A stretch of 64,000 nucleotides of DNA from an uncultured Candidatus Saccharibacteria bacterium (GCA_937903325.1 CALCZR010000059.1:232760-296759), one strand, 5' to 3'. Positions 937-50,233 are shown, counted from the first letter of the stretch. The notes: generated from the letters alone by a model not told the origin. Program-made: numbers and translations.

Positions 937-2709
937 ATGCATATTCGACGCTCTATTTTTAGTTTTGTTGTCATAGGTCTCATGATTACTAGTCTGCTTG
1001 TTCATATGCCCCATGTGAGTGCCGGGGATTCGTGCGATCCGGCTGCTGCAGCAAATACGGAGCTTATTCAAGAATACGTGTTGCCGGAGGGTATTTGCGC
1101 TCACTACATTACCGAAGGTCCGGACAATACTGTGTGGTTCCAGAACCTTATAGACCACACCAAGATTGGTAAGGTGTCGGCCAGTGGTGCGACTACCATG
1201 TATACCATTTCTGAACTCAACTCTGACGCTCATTGTTTTATGCTTGGCCCCGACAGTAATCTATGGGCTGCTACTAAAGATAATCGAATGGCTAAGATAG
1301 CATCCAATGGTGAAGCGACATACTACGATCTACCTACTGGTGTAGAAGCTGCCGCAAAAGGATGCGCAGTCGGTCCAGACAATAACATTTGGATCGTGCA
1401 CCTAACTTCAACAAGCATACACATGCTCAAGATGGCACCTGCAAATGGTCAGGTGCTTGATTCATACGATATCCGAGCTGAAGACGCTTCAAATGATAAT
1501 GCCGGTGCCGTGTCAAAAGGGCCTGGTAATAAACTCTGGTTTTTCTACTATGCAGGTAATGATGAGCAGGATGGTGACGATGACACATCCCAGTTAGTAT
1601 CCATAGATACGAGTGGCACCATGGTACGTCACGACTGGTCAAATAACCCTTTTTACCAAGACGTACTACATGGTGACGATACGGCACTATGGTATGCCTC
1701 AAACGACTATGGCAAGGTTGTCAAGATTGCGCCAAATGGTACGCCTTCATTCTACCAGGTCCCCGGAAATGGTGACGCCTATCTATATGGCGGCTTCAAA
1801 GGGGCAGATGGTAACAGATGGTTTATTGCGGAAGGCAGCAATGCAGATGACGCATTGCTCCGAGTTACAGACAGTGGCGTTATTACTTCCTTTGCTCTTC
1901 CGTCGGGGAGTAGTGTTACGCCAAGCAGTATTGGTGCAGATAATCTGGGTAATATATGGTTCGGATCAGGGGGTAAGCAGAAAATTTCTAAGGTTACGCT
2001 GTATGGAGCACCCGACGAGCCTGTTACTCAGAAAACTATTACCAACGCTGTTACAAGTAAATCCGTAGTCATACAAACACCTCAAGATACGGACATTACT
2101 TGTTCTGGGGCACAGAAGGAAGTTGACCAGAATTCCCAAGACAATGGCTTTGACTATCCCCTGGGGCTTGTTAATTTCTGCTTTACAACGGAAGAAGTAG
2201 CTAACCAGGTAGAAGTTACCTTCGTGACCGACCTAAAGCCGGAGCAAGTTTCGGTCCGTAAGTATAATCCAACGACCAAAACCTACGCAGCAGTTACTGG
2301 CGCTACAGTCACTCAGACTAGTGTGCAGGGCCAAGCAGCCGTAAAGGCAAGTTACAACATTACGGATAATGGGCCACTAGACGTAGACGAAGCAACGGGT
2401 ACCATCCACGACCCTATCGGGCTGGCCGTTGCTGCCGAGACAGGAATAATACCGGTATTAGCCAACACGGGTGCTGTGGGAGTGTCTATAACTATACTGC
2501 TGGGGCTTATTATTGCCTCAAGCTTGGTAGTGTACTTTGACTATCGTAAACACAAGAAGCCATTAGCCGAGGAAGATCCAGCAGCTGGGGCACGATATAC
2601 CTTGCTGCACCATGTGCGGGTGGTAAGTATTCCACTCCTGAAGTACCGTTTGCAGATTAGTGCGGTGCGCGTCCAAGATGGATCACCAGACGGAATTCAC
2701 CGCTTCTAG
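937..2709 (+). CDS. Secreted repeat (beta-propeller-like) surface protein with LANTG sorting signal and extended C-terminal tail
   Basis: N-terminal signal peptide (IFSFVVIGLMITSLLVHMPHVSA). Recurring blade-like motifs GPDNTVWF, GPDSNLWA, GPDNNIWI, GPGNKLWF, DDTALWY, GADGNRWF, LGNIWF. C-terminal domain YPLGLVNF...ITDNGPLDVDEATGTIHDPIGL. LANTG at 2458-2472 followed by a hydrophobic helix and a 58-aa tail. Confidence 0.8.
   Translation: MHIRRSIFSFVVIGLMITSLLVHMPHVSAGDSCDPAAAANTELIQEYVLPEGICAHYITEGPDNTVWFQNLIDHTKIGKVSASGATTMYTISELNSDAHCFMLGPDSNLWAATKDNRMAKIASNGEATYYDLPTGVEAAAKGCAVGPDNNIWIVHLTSTSIHMLKMAPANGQVLDSYDIRAEDASNDNAGAVSKGPGNKLWFFYYAGNDEQDGDDDTSQLVSIDTSGTMVRHDWSNNPFYQDVLHGDDTALWYASNDYGKVVKIAPNGTPSFYQVPGNGDAYLYGGFKGADGNRWFIAEGSNADDALLRVTDSGVITSFALPSGSSVTPSSIGADNLGNIWFGSGGKQKISKVTLYGAPDEPVTQKTITNAVTSKSVVIQTPQDTDITCSGAQKEVDQNSQDNGFDYPLGLVNFCFTTEEVANQVEVTFVTDLKPEQVSVRKYNPTTKTYAAVTGATVTQTSVQGQAAVKASYNITDNGPLDVDEATGTIHDPIGLAVAAETGIIPVLANTGAVGVSITILLGLIIASSLVVYFDYRKHKKPLAEEDPAAGARYTLLHHVRVVSIPLLKYRLQISAVRVQDGSPDGIHRF
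2533..2706 (+). other. Conserved post-TM tail module, copy 1 (YFDYRKHKKPL...YTLLHHVRVVSIPLLKYR...HRF)
   Basis: 58 aa following the sorting-signal TM helix. Shares the order and spacing of Y-F-D-[YF]-x-[RK]-H-[KR]-K-P-L, HH-[VL]-[RK]-V-V, I-P-L-L-K-Y-R and terminal R-F with 50063-50230, and the core with 41235-41351. Confidence 0.7.
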
Positions 2710-3525
2710 CTAGAGTATTGCGCCCTGAGTAGTGCCGTGATTGGTGTCGTGGTCATAGGCCTCGTTAGCAGCATCGAGCGACCCAATAACTGCACGAGCC
2801 TGTCCGTTAACCGCAGCGACAATACTAGAACAGCTGGTGGGCGGGAAGTTCTGTATCCTATTTAATATCTGGCTGGCGTAAGTACGAGCTAGGTTGGCAT
2901 GCTCATTCTCATGAGTCGTGAGGTTCTGCATAAAGGTCTGCCATGCGCCGCTAACCCCAGGGTTGACACCGGCGCTGGCTTGCCAAGCAGGATACTGTTG
3001 CCCAATAGCTAGCCCAACGGCAGCACTTCGGACACTACAAACGCCGCTACCATTATCTTGGTAGCTGAATGTCCAGTTTAGCGCGTAGCTCGTGTTTGCA
3101 CTAAATCGTTCCCCGTTGCTCATAACTGGCGCACAGGCTGCAGATTGGGTACGAATCTCGTTGAGGGTGTTGCCATATATGGTGTACTCGTTTCGCACTA
3201 ATGGGGATTCAGTTACGCCTGGAGTAGCCAAGCTAATGTTTGGTGCAGCCACCGGCTGCATGAGGGTAGCGGGAGTACAGTTTGGGGCAGGAGTGGTTCT
3301 ACGAACGGCAGCGGGAGTAGAAGGAGTTGGGGTGCCGCCAGTAGTTGCTTGACTAGTGTTGGTGCCAGCTACCGCCTGAGACGTAGCGGTCGCAACTGCG
3401 CTAGGCGCTGCCTTTGTGGCTTCAGTCGTCGGGCGTGTTGCATATGCCGCATAACTGGATACGCAGCCAATAACAGAACCAATGAGAATCGTTGCCAAAA
3501 TACACGCTTTGAGGTCAGCACGCAT
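2710..3525 (-). CDS. Secreted DUF922-like putative Zn metalloprotease
   Basis: N-terminal hydrophobic anchor and Thr/Pro/Ala-rich linker. The pattern YTIYGNTLNEI...TSYALNWTFSY...CSVRSAAV...PAWQ...W..F...L..HENEH matches my recollection of the DUF922/COG5661 secreted protease family, including an HExxH motif. Confidence 0.6.
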   Translation of the reverse strand: MRADLKACILATILIGSVIGCVSSYAAYATRPTTEATKAAPSAVATATSQAVAGTNTSQATTGGTPTPSTPAAVRRTTPAPNCTPATLMQPVAAPNISLATPGVTESPLVRNEYTIYGNTLNEIRTQSAACAPVMSNGERFSANTSYALNWTFSYQDNGSGVCSVRSAAVGLAIGQQYPAWQASAGVNPGVSGAWQTFMQNLTTHENEHANLARTYASQILNRIQNFPPTSCSSIVAAVNGQARAVIGSLDAANEAYDHDTNHGTTQGAIL

Positions 3526-3653
3526 AGTTGTAACTCCTTAAACCCCACAAATAGTGAAGTTGGAGTATAATATCACAAAAGATCTAAAAAGTCAATACTC
3601 TGACAGAAGTGAACCTTGCTCCTAAGCAGGTCGGTGCGATATATAAACGATAC

Positions 3654-4061
3654 CTAGGCGATTGCTGTGACAAGCTCGTCTTTATCAACAAGGGATGTAA
3701 ACGCATCGAAGAAAAGATCTTTCTCTAATGCTACTCGTTCCATTTCTTGTACGTCACTAGAAGAGGTGTCTTTGTCTTCAAGCACACGCAAAACGGGCTT
3801 AAGTTCTTTGTTGTGCTCAAGATAATTGTTACTGAAATACTCAACAAACATACCACTTATACGTGAATTCTTATTCACAAATAGACTTATCTCATCATTG
3901 ACCTGAAACAGGAAATAACCCTTAGGAATTCGTGAAACACCATAGAATAGTTGATCAACTTCAGGATCATATTCAAGAGTCCAGCTGTTGGACATACTTT
4001 GCAGAACCTTCAATTGAGAAAGGATTTTTGCCTTGTCTAGCTTTAGTTCTCTAGCCATCAC
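3654..4061 (-). CDS. DUF2283-like protein, candidate antitoxin partner
   Basis: 135 aa. LEYDPEVDQLFYGV resembles the Y-D-x-E-x-D-x-L-Y motif of DUF2283. The ATG overlaps the upstream gene's TGA (ATGA at 4058-4061). Confidence 0.4.
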   Translation of the reverse strand: MMARELKLDKAKILSQLKVLQSMSNSWTLEYDPEVDQLFYGVSRIPKGYFLFQVNDEISLFVNKNSRISGMFVEYFSNNYLEHNKELKPVLRVLEDKDTSSSDVQEMERVALEKDLFFDAFTSLVDKDELVTAIA

Positions 4062-4441
4062 TGCTCCTTAGTGTAATACGTTGGGGTAAACCCATACTTT
4101 AATTCTTGAATATGATCGGTCTTAAATGCGGTCATGACTACGCAATGGGGGTCTGAGTTGTTGCGACGATTAGTCTCCCGAACAACTACCTTTGTAAACT
4201 TTATTATATCACGAACGCGGAATAATTCAAGATAGTAGCAAAGGGTACCTTCTTGGTTACCGTCGATTGTTAATGTAGGGCGTTGGAGTGCCATAGTTAT
4301 TTGTTTTGGGAAGAATTGTTTGTTTCTGAGTTCTGGATGTTTATCCTTATGCTTATCATAGTTCTTTTGCTTAAACTTCACAATAGTACCGAAGTAGTCG
4401 GTGACTTCTAGAACGCTCTTCTCCTCCTCAGCAGTCGTCAT
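4058..4441 (-). CDS. Small RelE/BECR-fold-like protein (DUF4258-like), candidate toxin
   Basis: 127 aa. KHKDKHPEL near the N-terminus and HCVVMTAFK near the C-terminus resemble the H-x-x-R and ...V-I-T-x-Y signatures of DUF4258/BECR-type small nucleases. AT-rich two-gene cassette. Confidence 0.35.
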   Translation of the reverse strand: MTTAEEEKSVLEVTDYFGTIVKFKQKNYDKHKDKHPELRNKQFFPKQITMALQRPTLTIDGNQEGTLCYYLELFRVRDIIKFTKVVVRETNRRNNSDPHCVVMTAFKTDHIQELKYGFTPTYYTKEQ

Positions 4442-4449
4442 TGTAGTGC

Positions 4450-4455
4450 ATTATA
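4450..4455 (-). promoter_or_regulatory. -10-like hexamer TATAAT, 8 nt upstream of the ATG at 4441
   Basis: Reverse complement of 4450-4455 is TATAAT. 8-nt spacer. No SD. Confidence 0.4.
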
Positions 4456-4530
4456 TAGTTTCACTTCAGTAAAACATATTACTAATGGCGGCAAATATTA
4501 AATCGCACCCTTTGTGAGTACTGTGTAATC

Positions 4531-7440: not shown

Positions 7441-7496
7441 ACGTCCCTCCATTACCGTTACTCTTAGCATACAGGCTGTAGCTAGCAGAGGCCAGC

Positions 7497-9824: not shown

Positions 9825-9983
9825 AGTACTTCTCCGTAAGGCTTACGCTTACTATATCTGCCCGTTGTGATAATAGCAATACCCAATTCTTTACAAATAC
9901 TAAAAGTAGTTATCAGCCAGAACACATTGCTGTTTACTTGGGGTACATATGTGGCTAAGCTAGAGAAGTAAATAGGAGGGTGT

Positions 9984-10559: not shown

Positions 10560-10587
10560 CCGACTGGTCAGCTAGCCGTTTATCCGT

Positions 10588-10593: not shown

Positions 10594-10601
10594 GCTTATG
10601 T

Positions 10602-11249: not shown

Positions 11250-11253
11250 TAGG

Positions 11254-36922: not shown

Positions 36923-38620
36923 ATGTATAAAAAGTTATCAGTGAAATTCCTCATGAGTGCTGTCGTCAGTTTGGCGGCTGCGTTCGTGCTGCAAAACGGC
37001 CATGCTAGCGCCGCTACCATAACAGTTACTCCTGATGCAGTAGACCAGACCATCAACGGTAACTGTTCGCTATACGAAGCGGCAGAGGCAGCCAGTACTA
37101 ATGCCGCCGTTGATACTTGCACGGCAGGTTCAGGAGCTGACACTATTGACGTTCCGGATGGTACTTATGTGCTTGATAGTAATACCGCACTCTCATTATC
37201 GGATGGCGTGTTAAATGGTGCTTCACAAGCAGATACGATTATAGATGCCAACGGTACCGGCCTGGTATTTGTGGGTTCAGGCACTATAACGGTTACTGTA
37301 CAGAATCTGAGCATCATTGACCCTTATAGAGCCATAGACGTGTCTGGTCAGGACGTGAATATAACGATGGACAACGTCATTATCGATGGTGGGGCCAATG
37401 GTCCGTATATCCAAAGTAGCGCCAACGCCACCTTCACCATGACGAATTCCATCATTCGCAATCTTTCTAGTGCTAGTAGTGGTGACTATGGCTTAAGGCT
37501 CGACGGTATTGCTACCACTGTACTGGACGGCGTAGCTATATACGGCAATAATTTTAGTGGAACCAGTTTTACGGGTACGGCCGATATTCGCAGTCAAGAC
37601 ATTATCGCGAGCGACGTGGTAGTTTATGACAATGAGATCGCCGGAGGCAGTTTCTTCGCATTGTCAGGCCGGACGGTAGATGCCTCGGGCATCGTGGTGC
37701 GTGATAATACCAGTACTAGTGAAGGCGGAGCCGTCTTTATAGTGGGTAGCTACGACAGTGGGTCGTTTGAGGCAGATGTTACAAATGTTGCTGTGGTGCG
37801 CAACGAAGTTCCGGGCGGTTTGGTGGCTGGAGCTTTCTGCGATACGAGTTCTGCATCGTGTGCGGTGACAATGAGTAATATGACTGTCGCCGAGAACACC
37901 TCGTTGTATACAGCAATATTTCTCAATAATAGGGATGAACATCCTATGACAGGCGCATTACAGAATGTGACTATCGCCAATAATGTACGGGCTGGCAACA
38001 CAGGTGGTCCCACGTTCTCAGGCGGACTGCTAGTAGTGAGCGATGATGGTTTAGGCGGTGCACCAACAATGACCATACAGAATGTTGTGCTCGACAATAA
38101 TCTAGATGAAACTACCCCACGTAACTGTGTAGCGGCAAGTGATCCGTTTTTCAATTTAGTGTCCCTTGGCAGTAATGTATCATCCGACGCCACCTGTAAC
38201 AGCATGTTTAACCAGCCCAGTGATCTCAATAGTACAGATCCATTATTAGATGACCTAACAGAAGATAACGGAACGTGGGTCTTGCCACTTTTGTCTGGAT
38301 CACCAGCAATTAATAGTGGCGACACGATCGGGAGTATACTAACCGATCAGCGCGGCACATTGCGCCCTCAAGGTAGTGCATACGATAGGGGTGCTTATGA
38401 AGTACTCGGAGCCTCCATTCCTGACCCAGACCCAGATCCAACAGGCAATGGTGGTGGCAGTGGCGTCAATGCCGGATCTGGCCAAGCGGGGACCACACCA
38501 GGCGTGCCCAATACCGGTTTTCTTTTGCTTACCAATAACCCAGTGGCCGTACTTGTGCTCACATCGGCTTGCGCCGGAGCCATTCTCCTCCTTACTAAAA
38601 GAGCCAGCCGCAAATCCTAA
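36923..38620 (+). CDS. CSLREA-motif right-handed beta-helix surface protein with VPNTG sorting signal (paralog A1)
   Basis: Signal peptide. NGNCSLYEAAEAA...CTAGSGADTIDVPDGTYVL (CSLREA-type N-terminus). Beta-helix repeats. C-terminal DQRGTLRPQGSAYDRGAYEV (choice-of-anchor-Q-like). VPNTG at 38504-38518, followed by a hydrophobic stretch and KRASRKS. Confidence 0.8.
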   Translation: MYKKLSVKFLMSAVVSLAAAFVLQNGHASAATITVTPDAVDQTINGNCSLYEAAEAASTNAAVDTCTAGSGADTIDVPDGTYVLDSNTALSLSDGVLNGASQADTIIDANGTGLVFVGSGTITVTVQNLSIIDPYRAIDVSGQDVNITMDNVIIDGGANGPYIQSSANATFTMTNSIIRNLSSASSGDYGLRLDGIATTVLDGVAIYGNNFSGTSFTGTADIRSQDIIASDVVVYDNEIAGGSFFALSGRTVDASGIVVRDNTSTSEGGAVFIVGSYDSGSFEADVTNVAVVRNEVPGGLVAGAFCDTSSASCAVTMSNMTVAENTSLYTAIFLNNRDEHPMTGALQNVTIANNVRAGNTGGPTFSGGLLVVSDDGLGGAPTMTIQNVVLDNNLDETTPRNCVAASDPFFNLVSLGSNVSSDATCNSMFNQPSDLNSTDPLLDDLTEDNGTWVLPLLSGSPAINSGDTIGSILTDQRGTLRPQGSAYDRGAYEVLGASIPDPDPDPTGNGGGSGVNAGSGQAGTTPGVPNTGFLLLTNNPVAVLVLTSACAGAILLLTKRASRKS

Positions 38621-38708
38621 CCCACCGGTAATCATCGGGCAAGGGTTGATTGTGTAACCACAAGGGGTGAGTTACAATAATTATTGACAGTAATAAAATA
38701 AAAACAAT

Positions 38709-40424
38709 ATGTCACAAAAATCATCCATAAAATTCTTAATGAGTTTAGCAGTAAGTTTGGCCGCGGTATTCTTTCTGCAAGGTGGCCATGCTAGTGCGAC
38801 AACGATCAATGTAACAGCCAACGCCGTTGATCTAACCACCAACGGCAACTGCTCTTTATATGAGGCCCTAGAGTCTGCAGACACTGACGCTGCTGTAGAT
38901 AATTGTGTGGCTGGTTCCGGGGCTGACACTGTGAATGTTCCTAATGGTACATATGTGTTGGCCGTCATAGCTTTGGATTTTGGTGGGACGGATCTGACAG
39001 TTTCGGGCGCGAGCCGAGCCGGAACTATCATCGACGGTGATGGAGGTTATGGGCTGAATTATGATGGAGGTAGTGGGGTGCATAGCCTTACGTTGCAGCA
39101 TTTGACGGTAACAAACACTAAAGGCCTGAGCAGCTTGGTTAGCGCTGAGGTTAATGTAATCATTGACGACACAATATGGAGCAATTCCTTTACGGAGTTG
39201 TACCACGCCCCAATTAGGATATATGGGGATGGGGCAACAGATCTCACTGTTTCCAACACGGAGATATATGGCAATACCAGTGATGATGGTTTGTGCGGAA
39301 TCGAAACACAATCTAAAGACCGGGTCAGCCTGGCTAATGTAAAAGTGTACGACAATGTTTGTACCATAGGCAGGATCCTTGGATTAAGAGGCGAGGTCGT
39401 CACGCTAGATCAGGTCGAGGCTTATGGTAACGAAAGTACGGGTATTATCTATGTGGCTGCGGCAGCTAGTACCGTTGTAGAGGGGTTAAAGGCTCACGGG
39501 AATACTGCTACTGACGAGGGGGTTGTTGGTGTTAACACTCCAGACATGGACCTGAGTTATGTCGACGTATACGATAACACAGGCTTTGCGCTGGGTCTGA
39601 GTGTAAGCGGAGCACTTGGATCGATCACACTACATCATAGTTCAGTCGTGGGCAATGACGGTTTTGGAGCGCTATTTATGACGAATGATGGGGGTGGGTT
39701 TGACGTTAATGTTAGTAATGTAACCGTCGCCAATAACACTACTGGATATTCAGCGATTACCTTTATGACAGACGAAACGAACCCACTGAGTGGCACTATC
39801 AAGAATGTTACTATCGTAGACAACCACCGCACCGGTAACTTCGGTTTTGCACTACCCGCAGGATTGCTTTTCATGTCCAACAGTCAGATCGCCCCAACTG
39901 CCAATCTCGAAAACATACTTATGTCAGGGAACCTGGATGAAGCGACCCCGCAGAACTGCGGTCCACTATCCCAGCCCCAGATGTTCTCGCCCGATTCCCT
40001 TGGGCATAACCTGAGCAACGATAATACTTGTGGTGATGTATTCGACCAAACAAGTGACCATAATAACGTTGACGCCATGCTCGACCCGCTGATAGAAGAT
40101 AATGGTACGTGGGTTGTTCCTCTTCAAACTAATTCGCCAGCAAATGATGGCGGGGCCACCGTGGCGGGCATGACCGACGATCAGCGAGGTACGGCTCGCC
40201 CGCAAAACGATGCCTTCGACATTGGTGCCTATGAAGTGCTCGGAGCTGCTACCTCAAATCCAGGTGGTGGCAGCGGTAATAACGCTGGTGCTGGCGTAAT
40301 CCCCGGCGTACCAAATACCGGCTTCGGTCTACTTACCAACAATCCATTTGCAGTACTAGTGCTAACCTCCGTTAGTACAGGAGCAATCCTCCTCATCTCC
40401 AGAAGAGTCAGCCGCAAAACCTAA
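38709..40424 (+). CDS. CSLREA-motif beta-helix surface protein with VPNTG sorting signal (paralog A2)
   Basis: NGNCSLYEALESA...CVAGSGADTVNVPNGTYVL. DQRGTARPQNDAFDIGAYEV. VPNTG at 40308-40322, followed by a hydrophobic stretch and RRVSRKT. Collinear with 36923-38620 and 57930-59600. Confidence 0.8.
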   Translation: MSQKSSIKFLMSLAVSLAAVFFLQGGHASATTINVTANAVDLTTNGNCSLYEALESADTDAAVDNCVAGSGADTVNVPNGTYVLAVIALDFGGTDLTVSGASRAGTIIDGDGGYGLNYDGGSGVHSLTLQHLTVTNTKGLSSLVSAEVNVIIDDTIWSNSFTELYHAPIRIYGDGATDLTVSNTEIYGNTSDDGLCGIETQSKDRVSLANVKVYDNVCTIGRILGLRGEVVTLDQVEAYGNESTGIIYVAAAASTVVEGLKAHGNTATDEGVVGVNTPDMDLSYVDVYDNTGFALGLSVSGALGSITLHHSSVVGNDGFGALFMTNDGGGFDVNVSNVTVANNTTGYSAITFMTDETNPLSGTIKNVTIVDNHRTGNFGFALPAGLLFMSNSQIAPTANLENILMSGNLDEATPQNCGPLSQPQMFSPDSLGHNLSNDNTCGDVFDQTSDHNNVDAMLDPLIEDNGTWVVPLQTNSPANDGGATVAGMTDDQRGTARPQNDAFDIGAYEVLGAATSNPGGGSGNNAGAGVIPGVPNTGFGLLTNNPFAVLVLTSVSTGAILLISRRVSRKT

Positions 40425-40463
40425 CACAGCTAATAATACCTATGAGGCCGAACCTTGTAGGTG

Positions 40464-40865
40464 TTATTTGATGGTTACGCGGGCGGCTTGGGTGCGGTCT
40501 GTTTCGCTCAGGAGGATGGTAACTTTTTGATCTTTTTTGAGGTCTTTTGCCGTGACTTTTTTAGCCGCACGTACATAGGTGGTTTTGTCGGTAAGGGCTA
40601 TAGTCTGATCTTTCCCGGTTGCTAACTTTATTACTAATTGCTTGTCGCTGATCTTAGTAATGGTGCCGGTACTGCTACGCTGAAAAAAATTGGCAGCGTT
40701 TTTAAAGGCGTCGTCGATGGCCTGCGAATCAACGTGTTTGGCAGCTTCATCTTTTTGACCATGTCGATACCCTCGTTGGTAACCACCGTAGGCAGTAATT
40801 CCCAATGCAACTAGTGCAGCAGCTATCGAAAGAATAATGCCCTGTTGTTTCCTTGGTATCTTCAT
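40464..40865 (-). CDS. Membrane-anchored hypothetical protein
   Basis: 133 aa. TM helix GIILSIAAALVALGITAYGG followed by a small Lys-rich beta-type domain. Confidence 0.55.
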   Translation of the reverse strand: MKIPRKQQGIILSIAAALVALGITAYGGYQRGYRHGQKDEAAKHVDSQAIDDAFKNAANFFQRSSTGTITKISDKQLVIKLATGKDQTIALTDKTTYVRAAKKVTAKDLKKDQKVTILLSETDRTQAARVTIK

Positions 40866-40961
40866 ACTTATGCTTAATTGTACTGATCTGGCGGCATTTT
40901 ACAAAATAAGCTGCTAATAAGTTGCATCTCTAGTACAATAGAGGCAAGCATAAGAGTTTAT

Positions 40962-43900
40962 ATGAAGAAGGCAACAGTAAGAATTGTTCAGCGCAAACGG
41001 CTTGCCGATAAAGCCAATGGCCTAGGAGATAAAATATACCAGCAGCGGATCAAACTTCTGCCGGTTTTTGTCATGCTGGCGTCTGTTACGGCCTTGATAT
41101 ATCTGCGCGTTCAGCCAGAGTCCGCCAAGGTTGTCAGCCGCGTAATTGAATCCAGTTTGAGCCAAATAACTCGCATGTCATTTCTCTGGTCGCCGCTCGC
41201 AGGCTTGATCGCATTGTCTGCCGCGGCTTTGCTGTACATGTGGATGGACTACCAGCACCACAAAAAGCCTCTTATTCGTGTGTCGCCTAAAACAAAGTAC
41301 GGCATGTTGCACCATCTTCGGGTTGTTGTGTTGCCACGTTTCAAATACCGCTGGCGCCCTGCATTGTACTGGTTGGCCGTAGCAGAAGTTTGCGCTGCAG
41401 TCTTTATCGCAGTTGTCGCTATTGTGGGCGTGCCATCCGCTTCAGCTTTTTCAGGTGACGGCCTAGGTACCGAGCAAAGCCCGTACCAGATCCAAACGTG
41501 CATACAGTTACAGGAAATGCATGATGATCTTGATGGCCACTATGAACTGGCAGGACCCATAGACTGTACTGGAACGAGCTCGTGGAATGGGGGTAATGGA
41601 TTTTTAGCTATTGGCACAAGTTCTGGCAACGAATTTACGGGCACACTAGATGGGAAAGATTTTGCCGTAGATGGGCTATACCAGAGAGTTGTAGATAACG
41701 ACGCACCCTCTGGGCTACTGGGTTCGGTAGTGGGTGGAACGGTTCACAATCTAAAGCTCACCAATGTAGACATTGCCTCCAGTACGGGTGGATCTACAGT
41801 CGCTCCGTTCTCCTCCGAGATTTTAAACGGCCAATTGTCGGATATTTCTGTTACTGGAACAATACAGGCTACCGGTAATGATGGTGCAATATATACCTCT
41901 GGTTTCGCGGGCTTGGTCGCAGTGAGTACTGTTAGTCGGGTGAGCGTCAATGTTGCCATTGTTAATAACAGCGTTGATGACGATGATGAGATCGGTAAGG
42001 GAGCATGGTCTGCTGGCTTGGCATTTGTGCTGCAGATGTCTACGGTTACCGATTCCTACACTACCGGTACTATAGCCGGTAACTTTCCTGCGGGTGGCAC
42101 TGCTATGTACGCCGGTGGATTTGCTGGGCAGATAATGATGGGGTCAGTTAGTAATAGCTACAGCAGTATGTCGATCTCTATTACGCGAAATCCGAGCTTG
42201 GCCCCAGCCATTATGGTGGTTGGCGGTTTTACAGCTTTCGTAGCGGCTGCCGACATGAGTAATAATTTCGCTACGGGGCAGCAATCTATATCAGTGGGGA
42301 GTATGGTGGCAGACTATCGTGGTGGCTTGGTGGGAGGAGTGATGTTTGTTGAAGATGCCGATCCACCTTTCAATGAGAATATAACGGGTTCTAATAACTT
42401 CTATGATATTACGAGGGCTAATCAGGCTGGATGTGTCGGTGCATATGCTGGAGAGGAACTAGAAGTACCTGTGCCCGACCAAACTCCTGGTGGTTTCTGC
42501 ACGGCAGTAAATACCGGCAGTTCTCAGCCAAACTACTTCTTCAATAACTCCACCAACCCACCATTCAAAGTAGGAAGCACGCAGGTTTGGGATTTTACAA
42601 ATGTATGGCGAACGGTTAGTGGTGGAGCACCAATTTTTGGTACGCAAGTTCCTGGTGTGCCAGCACTACCGGGTAAGGTCCGTTCATTGACGACTTCTAG
42701 CACTGACGCTACCAGCTTAACGGCCCAGTGGCTTGCACCAAGTTCCAATGGTAATTCGGCCATTACTAACTATGCAGTTGCCTATAAGTTACATAGTGTA
42801 AGTACTTGGACGCCTGTAGCGCGAACGCCTTCGACCACCACTTCACAGCTGATTACTGGCTTAACGGGTGGGCAGCTATATGACATACGAGTGGCTGCCA
42901 TTAACACAGTTGGTCAGGGAGACTGGGAGACTACTCAGAATGTTGGCACTAGTCAGGTGCCATCGGCAGCTCGCAACCTAGTGGTTAGCGGTGTGGCCCA
43001 AACGGGGCAACTTGAGCCGTATTATTTTCCAAAGCTTGACTGGCAGGCTCCGGAAGTTGGCGCCCCCATCACCGACTACGTTATCCAGTACAAACCCAAT
43101 GCTGGGGAAGATTGGGACTTGATTGCAGATGATATGCAGGGCGAATTCGACTGGGCAGAAAACATTGGGTCCTGGACGACGCTCAACGACGGCGTAGGCA
43201 CGGCGCTTAGTTTTAATGCGAGTACTTCATCCGACGCCGACTTTATTGGCTTATTGGTTGCCAGTCTGCCCGGAGAGGTACGTGCCATAGGCGATATTGA
43301 ATTTCGAGTGGCAGCTGTTAACTCTTATGGTCAAGGTCCGTGGAGTAATCTTGATAGTTTCCAGGTATTCATTGGCTTGACCGCCTGCCAACAAATGCAT
43401 GATGTGCTCGATGAATATCCCGGCGGTGTTTTCCAGCTGCTTAACAATATCGATTGTAGTGACACCGTGAATTGGAATGGTGGCCAGGGTTGGGAGCCGA
43501 TTCAGGATGAGTTTACGCCATTCCAAGGAGATCTAGACGGCAACGGCTTCACTATTAGCAACTTACATATGGAGAACCAAGACGATTACGTAGTGGGCCT
43601 GTTTGCCTACGTCGAAAATTCAATAATTAAAGATCTGACCTTGAGTAATGTAGCTATCCGCTCACTCAGACAAGCTACGGTTTCTTCCATGGTAGGTCCT
43701 CTGGTGGGCGTAGCTCAAGGCGACACAATACTATCCAATGTGCATGTTACTGGCTCGGTCGTTGGGCCTCGAGGTGCTGGCGGCATTGTGGGAATAATGG
43801 GCAATCTGACAGGGTCGGTCACGTGGAGTAACTTGACGTTTACTGGGGTAGTAAAAGGACAGGAAATGGCTGGCGGATTGCTTGCTGGCTTTGGTACTCC

Positions 43901-46900
43901 CGGTCAATTAACTATCGAGAATTCACAAAGTCACGGTTCGTTGGAGGGTATTCAGGGGGCAGGTGGCGCAGTGGCCTTTGGTCAAGGGTTGTCGCTGTCT
44001 CATGTAACATCTGATATGTCTATACTCTCGGGTTGCAAGTCGGCGGGCGGGCTCATCGGTACCTTGCAAGTCGGCTCGTTAGCAGACTCTGAATATACCG
44101 GCTCTATCCAATGTACTGCAGAGAATGCCGGGTACTTTAGTCAGCCCACATCGGTAGCGGTTGACGCCCAGAATCAGGTGTACGTCTTGGGTCATACCAT
44201 CAGCAGTACTATCTACAAGTTTTCATCTAATGGTGATTTATTAGCGCAGTGGAATTTTGCAGAAGGTAACTCAACTAATGGGAACCCCAAGGGCATTGCC
44301 GTCGACGCGCAGTCTCGGGTATACGTCACCGATGACGCCTACGATGAAGTCCGAATCTTTAGCAGTTCAGGTGTGTTATTGGATACATGGCCGACGCCAG
44401 ACCCCGGTAAGTTAACGGTCGATGCTAATAATAACGTATATATTGTCAGTGGTGATAGCGTCCGGAAGTATACCCAAGACGGCAATTTGCAGCATACCTG
44501 GGACGGTGAAGGTGCTTTCGAGCAGTTATATGATGTAGCTGTTGCAAGTGACGGCCGTATCTATGCGGCGGATATTGGTCAAGATCGTATCCATGTGATG
44601 GACAGTGACGGGGAAGTGATTACGTCGTTCGATAGCGAAGGCGCGCCATCCGTAGAATTCCAAAGTCCGGCTGCAATCGTGTTGGATAGCGCAAACAACC
44701 TATATGTACTGAATGGCAGTGCGCACCATGTGGTCGTTTTTGACTCTTCCTACCAGCCTATCGGAGATTGGCAAACACCTAATAGCGAGGTATATTCCGG
44801 GTCAGACATGGCGATGCGCGCCGACGGCAAGCTAACCTTACTCGGTACAAAAGTATATCAACTTAGCAGTAATGGTACGGTAGACAGTCATTGGGGCGGC
44901 ATCAGCAACTGGTTTGGCTCTGATCCTGGCGGCATAGCAGGCGGTTTGGTAGGTGTGTATGGCGGCACTACAGAACCACTCACCATACTAAGAAGCGCCA
45001 GCACAGGTACCATTACTTCACTCGACGGTACGGGTAAAGGCATTACCGTAGGGGGATTACTTGGTGCGACTGGTCAAATCAGCGGTGTAACCATTGATGC
45101 CAGCCATCCAGAGCAGTCGCTGACTCATGGTGTAATCATCAATGACTCTAACTCATCAATGGACATTACTGCTGCGGGCCAAGTGATTGTGGCCGGTGGT
45201 TTGGTAGGTTACTCAGACATTTCTGATATCAATAACTCTTCGGCATCTGGCGATATTGCCGTGTCTCATGATGCAAACTTCGCCGTTATACAAAGTGGTA
45301 TGGCTGGCGGTTTCATCGGTACAGGACAAAGACTAACTCGCATACGTAATTCGCATGCTACGGGCCAAGTAGCCATGGAGGGCTTCATCCCGACTAATGG
45401 ACAGGGCCCAATCGTGGGTGGTTTGTCAGGTAGCTTGGCAGGCTGGACACATCTCGATAATGTCTATGCAACCGGCAGCGTGACCGTATCAGCCAATCAA
45501 GATTGTAACCCAGGGCAATGTGCAGAGCAGGTAAGTTCCTATGCTGCAGGCCTGGTTGGTTTAATGAGCTCAAAGCCAAGCATTCCGGCGCTGTCTGTCG
45601 TGAATAATGTCTATGCAACCGGAAGCGTCAACTATAGTGCTCAAAGATCGGGTGTTTTTGCTGGGGGGCTGATTGGGCAAGCACAAATGCAGTATTTACA
45701 GCTTGGTAGTGTCCACGCAAGTGGTAGCGTCAGTATTACGGGGGCTGATGTAGTTGCCTTTGCAGGAGGATTGTTTGGTACGCTGATGACTGATCGTGAC
45801 ACAACGGTTCAACGTTTGTATGCCACCGGCAGTGTAACTAACGGCGGTAGACTTTACAGCCTTGGCGGCTCACCTTCGAGTTCTGCAGGATTGATCGGGC
45901 TTATGTCAGGCCCCATTACGCTTCAGACCTCATATGCCACCGGGGATGTAGAAGGCCCTGGGGTGGTGGCGGGGCTGGTGGGTAATGCCATACCATTCGC
46001 CTATGCTCAAGGGGGTGGGCCTGCAGACGAAAGGACTATCGAAAATAGCTATGCAACGGGCAATGTCGCTGGCAAAAATAGCGAGATGTACTTCAGCGAG
46101 AATTCTGAAATTGGTGAAGGGTATGTGGAGTTTGGAGCTGTTGCGGGAGGGTTAGCAGGGTCTATTATCGAGACTAATGTTACTGCCACCTATGCCAGTG
46201 GCACGGTATCAAATGAGACACCAGAGTTTGCTGACACCGTTCCACTCGTATTCCAATCACTATATGGAACAGCTACCGGCGGCTTGGTCGGTTCGGTTAT
46301 GGTTTGGCCTCTCGAATCTGCACCGAATGATCTGACCAAGGTAACCAATTCTTTTAGTGCGACTACCATCCAAAATGGTGCAAGCGACCCTAAGGGATTA
46401 ATTGCGGGTAGGATTTTTAGATGGGTAGAAGAACCATATGACCAAAGCCAGCCGAGTCTCAACCCCGCAAATTTACTGGATAATAACTACTATGACGTAC
46501 AAGGCGGTGCGACCGTGCCCTGTGCTACAAATCAGTTGCTGGTTGTGGCCGAAAATACTGCAGACTCAGATTTACAATCCACAGAATTCAACGGCCAGGA
46601 GGCTTGCCATCCAGTTAACGCCAACAATCAAACGCCAAACTACTTCAAAAACAGTAACACTAATCCACCACTCGATACTTGGGATTTCTCGACACCAATT
46701 TGGTACAAGCACTTAGCTACCCACCCAACTTTTGTGGTAGGTGAGGCAGTCCCTGGGCCACCCCGAAACCTTGCTGGCGTACCAACTACTTCCAGTGTGG
46801 CACTGTCATGGCAAGCACCAAGTAGTGATGGCGGTAGTGCAATTACCAATTACCGAATTCAGTACAGAGTACACGATACCAATACGTGGAGTGAATATGA

Positions 46901-48572
46901 ACACCCAGAAGGCGTTGCTACCAGTTACACGATTGGCGGCTTGACGTCCGGTGTTCGCTACGACTTCCAGGTTTCGGCCGTAAATGCCGTCGGACAAAGC
47001 ACCTGGGTATTGGGCATCTATGATGTATTGGTCCCAGGTAACCCCACTAATCCCACAGACCCTACCACACCAACAACTCCTACTAATCCAACGTCACCAA
47101 ACGGTCCTACGCGTCCAACTACCCGCCCATCATCTGGTGGTGGCACCGCGACGTCAAACAATGGTGGGTCGCCCAATCAAGAAGAGCCAGAGCTGTTAGA
47201 TATCTCAAAAATTCCAAGTACTGAGCTGCCGCCGAATATTTTTGCAGTCGCTCCACGCCAACAAAAAGTAAGCATAGTGCCATACTTCTTCTTGTCGTGG
47301 TTGCTACTTTTGGCAGCATACTACGGGTATCGTGCAATCAAAGAATATCGCTACCAAAAAGCTGCAGCGGGCTTGGTCGCCCGGACTGCTAAGACCGAAA
47401 AGTCTGTATCTGACTTCTTGGCGATAACAACTCACTACCTGGGGACACCACTGAGTATTCTAAAGGGTGCCATGGAGTTGATCGCTTCTAAGCACGCACT
47501 ACAAGCGGAATTCATGGCCACTTTCAATGCAAAGTTGACCGCACTACAGACAACTGCCGAAACGTTAACCCTACAAAACGAACAAGCACTCAGTGCTAAT
47601 CAAGCGGTGGTTGCTGATGATGTTGAACAAACGACTTCTGCTAAGTGGCTATGGCTGTCAATGGCGGGTATTGCCGTGGCCGTCGTCGTTACCGATATCG
47701 TGTTGATGGTCTCGAAATCATACAGCCAGCCATGGGGTAGAGCCCTCAACCACGCTATTTGGGCAGTGCTTGGTGCGGCTATCGTGGCAGTAAGTTTTGT
47801 TGCCTGGTCCAAACAAAAGAAACTCCGAACACAATATCATCAAACACTAGCTCGTGAGCGGGCATTGCTTGAACAAAAGAATGCCTTCCTTGGTGTGGCC
47901 GCTCAGCAACTTACTACCCATGCAGCTCAACTGCGACAAGGTACGCAGGGTCTTGAGCAGTTCCCTGATACGAAGTTGCTGCTGAATGGTTTGGCCATGC
48001 TCGATAAAGTTGCCTTGGCCCTCGGCAAGGTGCAGCGTTTCAGTACCATTAACGATGCTTCACCGAGCCTGAATGTACAGGAGATCTTTACGCGCGACAT
48101 CGCACCAGCGTTATCACAAGAGGCCCAAACAAAGGGTGTTAAGCTCACAAGCGGACTTTCTGCAGAGGCAAACGTGCAGATGCAACCCGAAGAACTACAG
48201 CAAGTAGTTGGTTCGGTAGTCCAGAATGCTATCCAGTTCAGTAATTCAGGTAGTACGGTAACTATTAACGCTCAAGCGGGGCATAGCAAATCGACTATAG
48301 CTGTGCAGGACAGTGGTCAAGGCTTCACCGCCGAAGCTCAGCAGCACCTTTTTGAGCCACTCACTCGCGGTGTAGATACTGCAACTTTCGATCACGAGGG
48401 ACTGGGGCTCAACCTATTTATTACCCAAATGATTCTGCACAAACATGGTGGTGACATTAGTGTTGCTAGTAAACCACAACAGGGAACGACCGTAACCATG
48501 CACCTACCAAACAGTGGAGCAGTTGCAACCGGAGTAGCAACACAAGTGATTAGCCCTTCATCTAGTTCCTAA
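40962..48572 (+). CDS. Giant (2536 aa) membrane protein: adhesin-like ectodomain (GLUG-like repeats, FN3, NHL-like) fused to a C-terminal histidine-kinase core
   Basis: Single uninterrupted ORF. About 20 GG[LF][VILA]G...N[ST]YA[ST]G[SDN]V repeats. Three FN3-like modules. Six or more V-D-x-x-x-x-[VI]-Y-V propeller-like repeats. P/T linker. TM helices. H-box FLAITTHYLGTPLSIL. N box VVQNAIQFS, G1 VQDSGQGF, G2 GLGLNL. Confidence 0.85.
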   Translation: MKKATVRIVQRKRLADKANGLGDKIYQQRIKLLPVFVMLASVTALIYLRVQPESAKVVSRVIESSLSQITRMSFLWSPLAGLIALSAAALLYMWMDYQHHKKPLIRVSPKTKYGMLHHLRVVVLPRFKYRWRPALYWLAVAEVCAAVFIAVVAIVGVPSASAFSGDGLGTEQSPYQIQTCIQLQEMHDDLDGHYELAGPIDCTGTSSWNGGNGFLAIGTSSGNEFTGTLDGKDFAVDGLYQRVVDNDAPSGLLGSVVGGTVHNLKLTNVDIASSTGGSTVAPFSSEILNGQLSDISVTGTIQATGNDGAIYTSGFAGLVAVSTVSRVSVNVAIVNNSVDDDDEIGKGAWSAGLAFVLQMSTVTDSYTTGTIAGNFPAGGTAMYAGGFAGQIMMGSVSNSYSSMSISITRNPSLAPAIMVVGGFTAFVAAADMSNNFATGQQSISVGSMVADYRGGLVGGVMFVEDADPPFNENITGSNNFYDITRANQAGCVGAYAGEELEVPVPDQTPGGFCTAVNTGSSQPNYFFNNSTNPPFKVGSTQVWDFTNVWRTVSGGAPIFGTQVPGVPALPGKVRSLTTSSTDATSLTAQWLAPSSNGNSAITNYAVAYKLHSVSTWTPVARTPSTTTSQLITGLTGGQLYDIRVAAINTVGQGDWETTQNVGTSQVPSAARNLVVSGVAQTGQLEPYYFPKLDWQAPEVGAPITDYVIQYKPNAGEDWDLIADDMQGEFDWAENIGSWTTLNDGVGTALSFNASTSSDADFIGLLVASLPGEVRAIGDIEFRVAAVNSYGQGPWSNLDSFQVFIGLTACQQMHDVLDEYPGGVFQLLNNIDCSDTVNWNGGQGWEPIQDEFTPFQGDLDGNGFTISNLHMENQDDYVVGLFAYVENSIIKDLTLSNVAIRSLRQATVSSMVGPLVGVAQGDTILSNVHVTGSVVGPRGAGGIVGIMGNLTGSVTWSNLTFTGVVKGQEMAGGLLAGFGTPGQLTIENSQSHGSLEGIQGAGGAVAFGQGLSLSHVTSDMSILSGCKSAGGLIGTLQVGSLADSEYTGSIQCTAENAGYFSQPTSVAVDAQNQVYVLGHTISSTIYKFSSNGDLLAQWNFAEGNSTNGNPKGIAVDAQSRVYVTDDAYDEVRIFSSSGVLLDTWPTPDPGKLTVDANNNVYIVSGDSVRKYTQDGNLQHTWDGEGAFEQLYDVAVASDGRIYAADIGQDRIHVMDSDGEVITSFDSEGAPSVEFQSPAAIVLDSANNLYVLNGSAHHVVVFDSSYQPIGDWQTPNSEVYSGSDMAMRADGKLTLLGTKVYQLSSNGTVDSHWGGISNWFGSDPGGIAGGLVGVYGGTTEPLTILRSASTGTITSLDGTGKGITVGGLLGATGQISGVTIDASHPEQSLTHGVIINDSNSSMDITAAGQVIVAGGLVGYSDISDINNSSASGDIAVSHDANFAVIQSGMAGGFIGTGQRLTRIRNSHATGQVAMEGFIPTNGQGPIVGGLSGSLAGWTHLDNVYATGSVTVSANQDCNPGQCAEQVSSYAAGLVGLMSSKPSIPALSVVNNVYATGSVNYSAQRSGVFAGGLIGQAQMQYLQLGSVHASGSVSITGADVVAFAGGLFGTLMTDRDTTVQRLYATGSVTNGGRLYSLGGSPSSSAGLIGLMSGPITLQTSYATGDVEGPGVVAGLVGNAIPFAYAQGGGPADERTIENSYATGNVAGKNSEMYFSENSEIGEGYVEFGAVAGGLAGSIIETNVTATYASGTVSNETPEFADTVPLVFQSLYGTATGGLVGSVMVWPLESAPNDLTKVTNSFSATTIQNGASDPKGLIAGRIFRWVEEPYDQSQPSLNPANLLDNNYYDVQGGATVPCATNQLLVVAENTADSDLQSTEFNGQEACHPVNANNQTPNYFKNSNTNPPLDTWDFSTPIWYKHLATHPTFVVGEAVPGPPRNLAGVPTTSSVALSWQAPSSDGGSAITNYRIQYRVHDTNTWSEYEHPEGVATSYTIGGLTSGVRYDFQVSAVNAVGQSTWVLGIYDVLVPGNPTNPTDPTTPTTPTNPTSPNGPTRPTTRPSSGGGTATSNNGGSPNQEEPELLDISKIPSTELPPNIFAVAPRQQKVSIVPYFFLSWLLLLAAYYGYRAIKEYRYQKAAAGLVARTAKTEKSVSDFLAITTHYLGTPLSILKGAMELIASKHALQAEFMATFNAKLTALQTTAETLTLQNEQALSANQAVVADDVEQTTSAKWLWLSMAGIAVAVVVTDIVLMVSKSYSQPWGRALNHAIWAVLGAAIVAVSFVAWSKQKKLRTQYHQTLARERALLEQKNAFLGVAAQQLTTHAAQLRQGTQGLEQFPDTKLLLNGLAMLDKVALALGKVQRFSTINDASPSLNVQEIFTRDIAPALSQEAQTKGVKLTSGLSAEANVQMQPEELQQVVGSVVQNAIQFSNSGSTVTINAQAGHSKSTIAVQDSGQGFTAEAQQHLFEPLTRGVDTATFDHEGLGLNLFITQMILHKHGGDISVASKPQQGTTVTMHLPNSGAVATGVATQVISPSSSS
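41235..41351 (+). other. Conserved TM-proximal tail module, copy 3 (internal, between TM helices of the giant protein)
   Basis: YMWMDYQHHKKPLIRVSPKTKYGMLHHLRVVVLPRFKYR. Preceded by helix FLWSPLAGLIALSAAALL and followed by helix ALYWLAVAEVCAAVFIAVVAIVGV and the signal-peptidase-like site VPSASA-F. Confidence 0.65.
42669..43346 (+). other. Two tandem FN3-like modules within the giant protein
   Basis: PGKVRSL...LTAQWLAPSSNGNSAITNYAVAY...YDIRVAAINTVGQGDWE, and PSAARNL...LDWQAPEVGAPITDYVIQYK...FRVAAVNSYGQGPWS. Confidence 0.7.
44136..44898 (+). other. NHL/beta-propeller-like repeat region within the giant protein
   Basis: Repeats of P-x-[GS]-[VI]-A-V-D-x-x-x-x-[VI]-Y-V: PTSVAVDAQNQVYVL, PKGIAVDAQSRVYVT, LTVDANNNVYIV, LYDVAVASDGRIYAA, PAAIVLDSANNLYVL. 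Confidence 0.6.
46752..47006 (+). other. Third FN3-like module within the giant protein
   Basis: PGPPRNLAGVPTTSSVALSWQAPSSDGGSAITNYRIQYR...YDFQVSAVNAVGQSTW. Followed by the Pro/Thr linker NPTNPTDPTTPTTPTNPTSPNGPTRPTTRP. Confidence 0.7.
47397..48572 (+). other. Histidine-kinase core of the giant protein (H-box, two TM helices, second DHp-like helix, HATPase_c)
   Basis: EKSVSDFLAITTHYLGTPLSILKG (His codon at 47432-47434). TM helices WLWLSMAGIAVAVVVTDIVLMV and AIWAVLGAAIVAVSFVAW. KNAFLGVAAQQLTTHAAQL. N/G1/G2 boxes. Confidence 0.7.
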
Positions 48573-48580
48573 AACTGTTA

Positions 48581-48586
48581 TATACT
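48581..48586 (+). promoter_or_regulatory. -10-like hexamer TATACT, 7 nt upstream of the ATG at 48594
   Basis: TATACT followed by AATGCTT and then ATG. This suggests the real start is ATG 48594 (or 48603) rather than 48588. Confidence 0.3.
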
Positions 48587-48587
48587 A

Positions 48588-50233
48588 ATGCTTATGCCGA
48601 CGATGACACGACTCCTAAAACACAAATACTTCCTTGGCTTACTAACTTTTTTTGCCGGGCTGGCAACCTTGCTCACGCTGGGCGGTGGTCAGGCTCAGGC
48701 AGCCACGCTCAATGTTTCGGGCGGTTGCACCATTACCATTGCTATTAACTCAGTCAATGCCGGCTCGACTCAAACAGGCTGTACTTCAACTGGTACCTAT
48801 GGGACAAACGACACTATTACCATTGCGGCAGGTACCCAGACGTTGACCACCGATCTACCATCACTGACCGAACCAGTTGTCATAAAAGGTGCAGGCATGG
48901 ACCAGACTACTATTAACGGTGACGGTGGTCAGTATGCGACATTCAAAGCGAATAGCGTAGCGGGGCCTATTACTATTACTGACATGAAAATAACCGCCTT
49001 TCGGAGTGCGGCTATTGATATTGAAATGACTGATACGAGCGTTATACTTAAAAATATTGACGTTGATGGTCATGGTGCAAAAGGTGGAGGGATATATATA
49101 AATGCTTTGGGCACACAGCCTACAACCTTTAATAGCGAGGCTATCTATGTTCATGACATCGATTGGGCCGGTGAGGATATTTACGCATTCGCGATTTCCA
49201 AGCATGATACCACTACGCTGACTGCCACTATTAGTAATACTACAATTGCCAACATAACAACCAGTGGCGATAAGCAACTGTATGGTTTTGGTCTCCTTTC
49301 CGGAGCTGGCGGTGATGGCACTGGCACATTACATGCCAACATTACTAATACCACTATAGATAACCTAACTGCCGATGCGTTCGTAGCTCCCTTCTATGTT
49401 GTTGCCTTTGGCGCCAGTGGGAACACTACCATTACCGCTGACGTGACCTATGTAACGGTTACCGAAACGCATGGGGGCACGGGGTCACTTGCTACTGAGA
49501 CGCTTAATACCGCAGCCTTTTACGCCATCGCCGGTGGTTCTGGCGTGGGCAGTATAGGTACCGCTACCATCAATGTCAATAATAGCCTTTTTGCTAATAA
49601 CTTCTCAGACAATACTTCGAGCAACTGTGGCGTCTTAGATGCGACTGCTGCTGTCGGTGTTCCGGCTCAGGCGTTCCTTCTATAAATTCGCTCGGACACA
49701 ACCTTTCTGATGATAATAGCTGCGCGAGTTTTAGCCAGACTGGCGATCAGCAGAATCTCAACAATATCATCACCACGCTTGGCTCATTGCAGAATAATGA
49801 TGGTCCGGTCCCAACTAGAGCGTTACTCGCTGGCTCGCCAGCTATCGCTGCTGGTGGGTCAGTGCTTGGCATCACAACTGATGCTCGCGGTAAAGCGCGA
49901 CCGGGCAATAGCCCGTCAGTGGGTGCTTACCAGTACGTATTGGCCAGTAGCACCGAGACGCCAACTACTTCTACAGCAGCAGGAGATAAGTTGGCAGAAA
50001 CCGGCAAGATAATTCCGTTGGTCGCCGTTGCAGGCTTGTTGCTCGGCTCGCTCTCCTACATCTACTTCGACTTCTTGCGACACCGTAAACCGCTGAAAGA
50101 GCAGGATCCAGGGGTTCGTTACTCTTTTGCGCATCACCTCAAAGTCGTAACGATTCCACTGCTCAAATACCGCGTATCTATTGGAGTTAGTAAGGTTGGT
50201 AAAAATAACAGCGATAATGTTCGTCGCTTTTAA
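48588..50233 (+). pseudogene. CSLREA-family beta-helix surface protein (paralog B1) split by a 1-nt frameshift near 49656-49661; LAETG signal and extended tail
   Basis: ORF 48588-49685 is collinear with 56349-57854 up to ...SSNCGVLDATAAVG. The homologous continuation GSGSGVPSINSLGHNLSDDNSCASF...LGSLQNNDGPVPTRALLAGSPAI lies in a different reading frame and leads into ORF 49787-50233. Restoring one G in GTCGGTG-TTCC gives VGGSGSGVP, as in the paralog. LAETG at 49991-50005. Confidence 0.7.
50063..50230 (+). other. Conserved post-TM tail module, copy 2 (YFDFLRHRKPL...YSFAHHLKVVTIPLLKYR...RRF)
   Basis: 56 aa after the sorting-signal helix. Collinear with 2533-2706. Confidence 0.7.

Follow-up and report, generated by a model that had tools for sequence, protein, structure and literature searches.

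The DNA considered here is a stretch of 64,000 nucleotides (the window) from an uncultured Candidatus Saccharibacteria bacterium (GCA_937903325.1, CALCZR010000059.1:232760-296759). It encodes two surface proteins, S1 and S2, in which a sortase-type LAxTG motif is followed by a transmembrane (TM) helix and a conserved 45-residue tail, hereafter the module, with the consensus [YFW]xD[YF]xxH[KR]KPL…P…Y..HH.[RK]VV..P..KYR. The same TM-plus-module unit recurs near the N-terminus of giant histidine kinases encoded nearby. The helix and tail that sortase cleavage would leave behind in the membrane are referred to as the stub. Three copies of the module lie inside the window and a fourth just beyond it, in the upstream giant kinase K1. 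The genes and features concerned are the following (lengths in amino acids, aa; module coordinates are profile envelopes):

1-246, plus strand: 3' end of giant histidine kinase K1, with a HATPase_c match; the full gene (L001:2273-9310) encodes 2345 aa, with the module at aa 82-125
937-2709, plus strand: surface protein S1, 590 aa, with signal peptide, Vgb-lyase-like propeller, choice-of-anchor U domain, LANTG, TM helix and module tail
2458-2472, plus strand: LANTG sortase motif of S1
2473-2538, plus strand: TM helix in the sorting signal of S1, with homology to the kinases' TM2
2518-2676, plus strand: module copy of S1, 70.9 bits; the C-terminal end, ...GIHRF, is at 2677-2706
40962-48572, plus strand: giant histidine kinase K2, 2536 aa, with TM1, TM2, module, TM3, an ectodomain of ~1940 aa, TM4, H-box, TM5-TM6, a DHp-like hairpin and HATPase_c
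41181-41243, plus strand: second TM helix (TM2) of K2, with homology to the sorting-signal TM helix
41226-41378, plus strand: module copy of K2, 71.6 bits, predicted to be cytoplasmic, between TM2 and TM3
41358-41447, plus strand: TM3 of K2, ending VPSASA|FSG, which resembles a signal-peptidase-I site
47268-47453, plus strand: TM4 of K2 (47268-47330) and the invariant H-box FLAITTHYLGTPL (47415-47453)
47646-47807, plus strand: TM5-TM6 hairpin of K2 (outer loop short), similar in appearance to an intramembrane-sensing kinase
48186-48512, plus strand: catalytic domain of K2, HATPase_c, scoring 79.6 bits (cut-off 26.4)
48588-49685, plus strand: 5' open reading frame (ORF) of S2, a split gene; encodes 365 aa including a signal peptide
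49601-50233, plus strand: 3' part of S2 in another frame (called ORF 49787-50233, 148 aa), with choice-of-anchor Q domain, LAETG, TM helix and module tail
49991-50068, plus strand: LAETG (49991-50005) and TM helix (50006-50068) of S2
50048-50200, plus strand: module copy of S2, 83.2 bits; the tail ends ...NVRRF at 50230

Against a profile of the module the window copies score 71-83 bits, and a six-frame scan of the window with the patterns HH[LVIM][RK]VV and H[KR]KP[LIVM] returned three matches to each, all within the three copies. BLASTP aligns the tails with the kinases across 59-68 residues, TM helix included, at E = 3e-12 to 5e-15, a similarity that is, judged on sequence, far beyond chance. 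That surface proteins and kinases are linked by shared cargo was considered and rejected: the only strong BLASTP similarity is the TM-plus-module unit (E 1e-9 to 1e-15), and the rest of these proteins gives one weak match, in the propeller, of S1 to K1 (23% identity, E = 0.001). A first-pass annotation of the window had already singled out these tails. Both C-termini that it quoted are present in the ORF listing, and the core that it reported near the N-terminus of the giant kinase is indeed found there after a TM helix, although it begins a few codons later than had been given (MDYQ at 41244). It had also placed both tail-bearing genes downstream of kinases of the same type, which is correct: S1, starting at 937, follows the K2 paralogue K1, which ends at 246, with an HhH-GPD (AlkA-like) gene in between, and S2 follows K2. 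The second tail-bearing gene, annotated at 48588-50233, does encode the tail but is not one ORF, as a frameshift splits S2.

The tails of S1 and S2, about 55-58 residues with a conserved domain, are too long for the short tail of a standard sorting signal, although they open with a basic stretch, RKHKK. Against the sorting-signal model TIGR01167, S1 reaches 13.9 bits, under the cut-off of 15.9, and S2 has no match. S1 has an N-terminal signal peptide of its own; that of S2 sits on the 365-aa ORF, a frameshift apart from the anchor. The two are the only sorting signals in the window that run far past the anchor, and the only ones to use LA[NE]TG, both as first noted. The remaining four proteins with such signals (36923-38620, 38709-40424, 56349-57854 and 57930-59600) carry [VA]P[ND]TG and stop 4-9 residues after the TM helix. 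These four are paralogous choice-of-anchor Q/beta-helix surface proteins arranged as two tandem pairs (36923-40424 and 56349-59600), the second of which is followed by a sortase gene, srt2. As to the split of S2, the frameshift is located between ~49600 and 49688, and intact orthologues of 601 and 632 aa align to frame 1 and next to frame 3. The 365-aa ORF is present on 19 contigs and the 148-aa ORF on 13. Since the split recurs in many independent assemblies, an assembly error was rejected as its cause and the split is taken to be real in this lineage.

How widespread is the module, and in which proteins does it occur? A profile built from the four copies and searched against 1.84 billion representative proteins matched 190 protein clusters at E <= 1e-3, 124 of them at E <= 1e-10. 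Position and conservation were read from the best 150 of the 190 matches plus one fragment from a word-index search, giving 151 sequences. In this set the module is confined to three settings. The first comprises 85 of the 151 sequences, which have a sortase-like motif upstream (mostly LA[NEKDVT]TG, some LPxTG or LxxVG) and the module no more than about 10-15 residues from the C-terminus. The second consists of 20-23 large proteins with the module at residues ~75-150, every complete one of which ends in the same HATPase_c kinase core. The third is made up of 38 small proteins of fewer than 170 aa with one TM helix and the module. Restriction of homologues to sortase-signal C-termini and giant-kinase N-termini was the outcome that the first-pass annotation would count in its favour, and the profile search places them there, adding only the stand-alone TM mini-proteins. 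The cargo of the C-terminal class is varied, with NHL, SBBP and Vgb-like propellers and choice-of-anchor Q and U domains; the tail therefore belongs to the anchor and not to a cargo or a protein family. A scan of GTDB species representatives gave 26 loci, up to five per genome, all in Candidatus Saccharibacteria and none in Actinobacteria, a group that the first-pass annotation had also suggested searching; the scan used narrow patterns, so that absence outside Saccharibacteria is not proven by it. The narrow-pattern scan of metagenome contigs gave four loci.

Conservation within the module is high. Fifteen positions are kept at 87-100% in the 151 sequences, fourteen of them at 95% or more, and the strongly conserved residues are Y4, D8, Y9, H12, P15, L16, P21, Y25, H29, H30, V34, P37, Y41 and R42, with D20 conserved in ~70%. 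On these figures, the conservation far exceeds what a charged stop-transfer tail needs. Pfam and NCBIfam left the module unmatched, whether the window proteins or 105 homologous segments were used as query; a profile search of PDB sequences was empty, and Foldseek against the PDB with a 56-residue model of the module returned no match. The expectation that the tail corresponds to no known domain thus held in each of these collections. Searches of the literature on Saccharibacteria or TM7x with sortase or histidine kinase gave no description of the module either, and members of the family that have any source annotation are labelled "hypothetical protein". By its conservation and by these searches, the module is a dedicated, previously undescribed domain.

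The tail is tightly tied to the sortase motif. Among the sampled loci and the window, all 20 LAxTG signals carry the module (one of the 20 duplicates a window gene), whereas none of the 19 xP[ND]TG signals does, and all 19 have a short tail. Two sortase genes lie in the window:

50753-51403, plus strand: srt1, class F-like sortase, candidate dedicated sortase for LAxTG/module proteins
59702-60403, plus strand: srt2, class F-like sortase, with orthologues among xP[ND]TG short-tail substrates

For both, class F is the best class (97 bits for srt1 and 114 for srt2, each under the cut-off of 166), and class E, at 29 and 17 bits, fits neither. An srt1 orthologue lies directly 3' of a module-tail gene in locus L040, and srt2 orthologues in loci L032, L041 and L042 are surrounded by APNTG/APDTG short-tail genes. 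As srt1 adjoins a module-tail gene and srt2 orthologues adjoin short-tail genes, the arrangement suggests two sorting routes with one sortase apiece, the srt1 link coming from only two loci. Motif, helix and tail taken together, LAxTG plus TM helix plus 45-residue tail is, in its sequence features, a specialised Saccharibacteria cell-wall sorting signal with a conserved cytoplasmic domain. By the positive-inside rule the module is predicted to lie in the cytoplasm in the sorting signals and in the kinases alike.

In the module-bearing kinases a short basic N-terminus is followed by TM1, a loop of ~25 residues, TM2, the module and TM3. After TM3 come an ectodomain of ~1000-2100 residues, TM4, an invariant H-box (FLAITTHYLxTPL) and a helix, and the C-terminal part consists of the TM5-TM6 hairpin, a second, DHp-like hairpin without a conserved His, and HATPase_c. 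Across the giant kinases as a whole, ectodomain length ranges from about 1000 to about 2900 residues. With Foldseek, the closest structures to the core at the C-terminal end of K2 are the DHp-CA cores of DivL (the top match), HK853, ZraS and CpxA at E ~1e-11, and HisKA on K2 scores 16.3 bits against a cut-off of 26.9. The invariant His of the H-box follows TM4, and TM5-TM6 intervenes before the catalytic domain. This unusual core layout, with an H-box, TM5-TM6 and a second hairpin that has Gln or a nonconserved residue at the canonical His position, is present in K2 (47268-48572) and 14 homologues. In all ~21 module-bearing kinases TM3 has a small-x-small end (VPSASA|FSG, FAYAP, RAAN; 41430-41456 in K2). 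As this end resembles a signal-peptidase site, cleavage there, if it takes place, would free a TM1-TM2-module-TM3 fragment from the kinase. One assembly of a strain that is nearly identical has upstream of alkA no more of K1 than its final ~530 codons (PT-rich linker, TM4 and kinase core; L004 2720-4312), preceded by unrelated genes, representing either a deletion variant or a chimeric contig.

The stand-alone TM-plus-module proteins are 70-105 residues long. In complete genomic context such genes are found in L024 (83 aa), L025 (105 aa) and L026 (75 aa). The N-terminus of the L025 mini-protein, labelled hypothetical by NCBI, reads MLPYYLLPIPLGLV…, which is the exact stub start expected for LPETG|VPYWFLPVPLAIL-type proteins, and its gene adjoins that of a 3052-aa giant kinase with a plain single-TM N-terminus and no module. 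The 148-aa 3' ORF of S2, which has no signal peptide, is called as a separate gene in public annotations and might resemble a stand-alone stub.

A tail gene and a giant kinase gene are adjacent twice in the window and also in L016, L010 and L014. The order in L016 is LANTG protein, DUF5666-like gene, kinase, and in L010 and L014 it is module-less kinase, ftsH, LAKTG protein, the LAKTG protein being an orthologue of the split S2. Alongside giant kinases and srt1, the gene that recurs most consistently is that of a small DUF5666-like protein, recognised by a weak domain match:

40464-40865, minus strand: DUF5666-like small TM protein, recurrent neighbour of giant kinases and srt1

Further instances are L001 1659-2162, L016 5806-6282, L025 9464-9898 and L040 854-1339. 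Elsewhere in the window, two small overlapping ORFs of 135 and 127 aa on the minus strand (3654-4441) have the layout of a toxin-antitoxin or similar two-gene cassette.

What, then, is the function of the module? Once a protein has been anchored to the cell wall, the stub that stays in the membrane is probably functional in its own right. The reading favoured here, tentatively and at a level short of probable, is that LAxTG plus TM helix plus tail is a sorting signal whose post-cleavage stub serves as a connector to giant orphan kinases. In such a scheme srt1, a dedicated class F-like sortase paralogue, would cut LAxT|G and join the ectodomain to the wall, and the TM-plus-module stub ("C-pep") would remain in the membrane as a functional entity. 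The stub would then dock on giant kinases as a membrane-anchored connector. It could pair with the copy built into the kinase, or it could take the site of that copy near the membrane helices and the H-box of the kinase. Where a kinase has no copy of its own, the module would be supplied in trans by an LAxTG protein encoded next to it or by a mini-protein. The output of the kinase would report the amount of surface protein exported and anchored, analogous to C-pep sensing in Streptococcus gordonii, where the C-pep left by sortase is reported to act on the histidine kinase SGO_1180 (PMC11326707; PMC11502775), as the first-pass annotation had described. A connector or signalling role is favoured over pure sorting because the unit is built into kinases, because stub-only genes exist, one of them beside a module-less kinase, and because of the S. 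gordonii precedent.

Several observations weigh against a role as a kinase connector. Cleavage at LAxTG by a sortase and attachment to the wall are presumed from the features of the signal, which stays below the cut-off of TIGR01167, and one of the two window substrates, S2, is a split gene. The general co-localisation of tail genes with kinases that the first-pass annotation had anticipated did not hold up: a kinase lies within 10 kb at about 5 of 21 tail-gene loci, and an LAxTG neighbour is found beside 3 of 8 module-bearing kinases. The module-bearing kinases in L028-L030, L032, L041 and L042 have xPxTG neighbours only, or none. With several giant kinases per genome of ~0.7 Mb, this rate of adjacency is not clearly above chance. 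The loci were moreover selected for containing the module, and the cis/trans argument is therefore open to ascertainment bias. Two of the stand-alone module genes lie among housekeeping genes, and no response regulator is found near the kinase.

The main rival is that the module does nothing but direct sorting or localisation in the srt1 pathway, acting in retention, positioning at a given membrane site or binding of a cytoplasmic or membrane partner; kinases and mini-proteins would carry it just to reach the same site, and the stub would not signal. This explanation, which we regard as somewhat unlikely, would account for the perfect correlation between LAxTG and the module and for the short tails of xPxTG proteins, and it agrees with the presence of two sortase paralogues, each beside its own class of substrates. 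It is also consistent with the finding of "choice-of-anchor" cargo domains with either type of anchor and with the general location of giant kinases in islands of surface-protein and sortase genes. However, srt1 has ~13 cytoplasmic residues, which leaves little for reading a cytoplasmic domain, and the mini-proteins have neither motif nor cargo, so there is nothing in them to sort. The link to srt1, on which this rival leans, comes from two loci only.

Alternatively, the module could be a turnover or quality-control tag, by which FtsH or another protease could seize the stub, as well as the N-terminal fragment of the kinase, so that stubs are cleared from a very small membrane. FtsH needs roughly 20 residues on its membrane substrates, a length that the tail exceeds, and many tails (57 of 127) share the C-terminus [IV]-x-[KR]-[FY]. 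In addition, ftsH sits between a module-less giant kinase and an LAKTG-module gene in two genomes (L010 6442-8313; L014 4568-6433). Yet these two genomes are related, and ftsH belongs to the housekeeping genes; a degradation tag does not normally require 15 near-invariant positions, and the internal copy in the kinase has no free C-terminus. We consider this role improbable.

A further possibility concerns the conserved D, H and HH residues, which might bind a metal or cofactor or, in a DHp-like hairpin with a modified His, take part in phosphotransfer. D8, H12, H29 and H30 are invariant or nearly so, and the spacing of H..PL recalls an H-box. AlphaFold, given an alignment of 105 sequences, models the module as a helical hairpin with helices at 2-20, 22-27 and 30-55 and a mean pLDDT (predicted local distance difference test) of 90.6. 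In a spliced kinase construct (K2 aa 1-174 plus 2073-2536, run with unpaired homologue pieces) the module has a pLDDT of 77-86, TM2 extends to residue 107, and a turn leads to a helix that runs into TM3. However, neither PDB sequences nor Foldseek gave a sequence or fold match to a metal site or a DHp domain, and the spacing in the module differs from that of an H-box. The all-helix model is itself doubtful, since three invariant prolines fall within its "helices" and the helical hydrophobic moment of the second half is near zero. An in-plane amphipathic helix was rejected, as this moment, 0.00-0.12, is below that of most shuffles. A metal-binding or phosphotransfer site is, on balance, very improbable. 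The last alternative, that a fusion between the 3' end of a surface-protein gene and a downstream kinase left the kinase copy behind as a relic with no function, could draw on the occasional adjacency of tail and kinase genes on the same strand, but it is hardly credible when the invariant residues are kept in about 20 kinases with just 22-68% identity elsewhere, the kinase copies largely group with one another by similarity (for 15 of 20 the closest sequence is again a kinase copy), and the kinase module is preceded by TM1 and a short loop rather than by a surface protein.

The favoured connector to giant orphan kinases can also be given a more specific form, in which the TM-plus-module unit is an "export receipt". 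Each protein anchored through LAxTG and srt1 would leave one stub, which would engage giant orphan kinases whose built-in copy is possibly autoinhibitory and perhaps freed by a signal-peptidase cut after TM3, and the stand-alone genes would encode stub mimics. In this full detail the proposal is speculative and, as it stands, unlikely. Were it true, an ultrasmall episymbiont could count the deployment of its surface arsenal, and C-pep signalling would be a domain-encoded mechanism that can be traced by bioinformatics.

Sortase biology regards the stub that remains after anchoring as waste, with S. gordonii as the one reported exception. The recurrence of its 45-residue domain in sensor kinases and stand-alone genes indicates that stubs can be functional products. 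The profile of the module provides a sequence handle for finding such stubs and defines a new domain family for annotation. In Saccharibacteria, surface proteins mediate attachment to host bacteria, and little is known of regulation; the finding joins a class of surface proteins, a sortase paralogue and giant orphan kinases as one testable unit.

Known systems resemble this one in part. As in the LPXTG sorting signal (TIGR01167), a pentapeptide precedes a hydrophobic helix and a tail with a basic start, in secreted proteins with N-terminal signal peptides and with sortases nearby; the tail here, however, has ~55 residues with a conserved 45-residue domain, against 5-10 basic residues. LAXTG is known as a variant motif of class E sortases in Actinobacteria (PMC5148588), but the sortases of the window are class F-like. 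The PEP-CTERM/exosortase and similar systems, in which a dedicated C-terminal sorting domain has its own processing enzyme, together with the "choice-of-anchor" concept of NCBIfam, offer a parallel in that choice-of-anchor Q and U cargo is combined with alternative anchors, each type beside its own sortase paralogue. Those systems are not known to have a conserved cytoplasmic domain in common with kinases, and NCBIfam has no model for the tail.

On the signalling side, the stand-alone proteins of 70-105 aa, with a single TM helix and a cytoplasmic domain and in one case encoded beside a giant kinase, recall the small membrane-protein connectors of sensor kinases MgrB, SafA and MzrA. They have no sequence relationship to these, and, in contrast to such connectors, the TM-plus-module unit is found inside kinases and would also be generated when surface proteins are cleaved. 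The closest parallel is the S. gordonii circuit, in which, as could be the case here, a sortase stub acts on a histidine kinase, and the TM5-TM6 unit of K2 is likewise a short-loop hairpin of two TM helices next to the catalytic core. The S. gordonii kinase, however, consists of two TM helices with a short loop and no sensory ectodomain, whereas K2 has six predicted TM helices and its large ectodomain. No response regulator is adjacent, and an action of the stub on the kinase is hypothetical here. Finally, and again unlike S. gordonii, a conserved cytoplasmic domain forms part of the stub, and the TM-plus-module unit recurs within the kinase.

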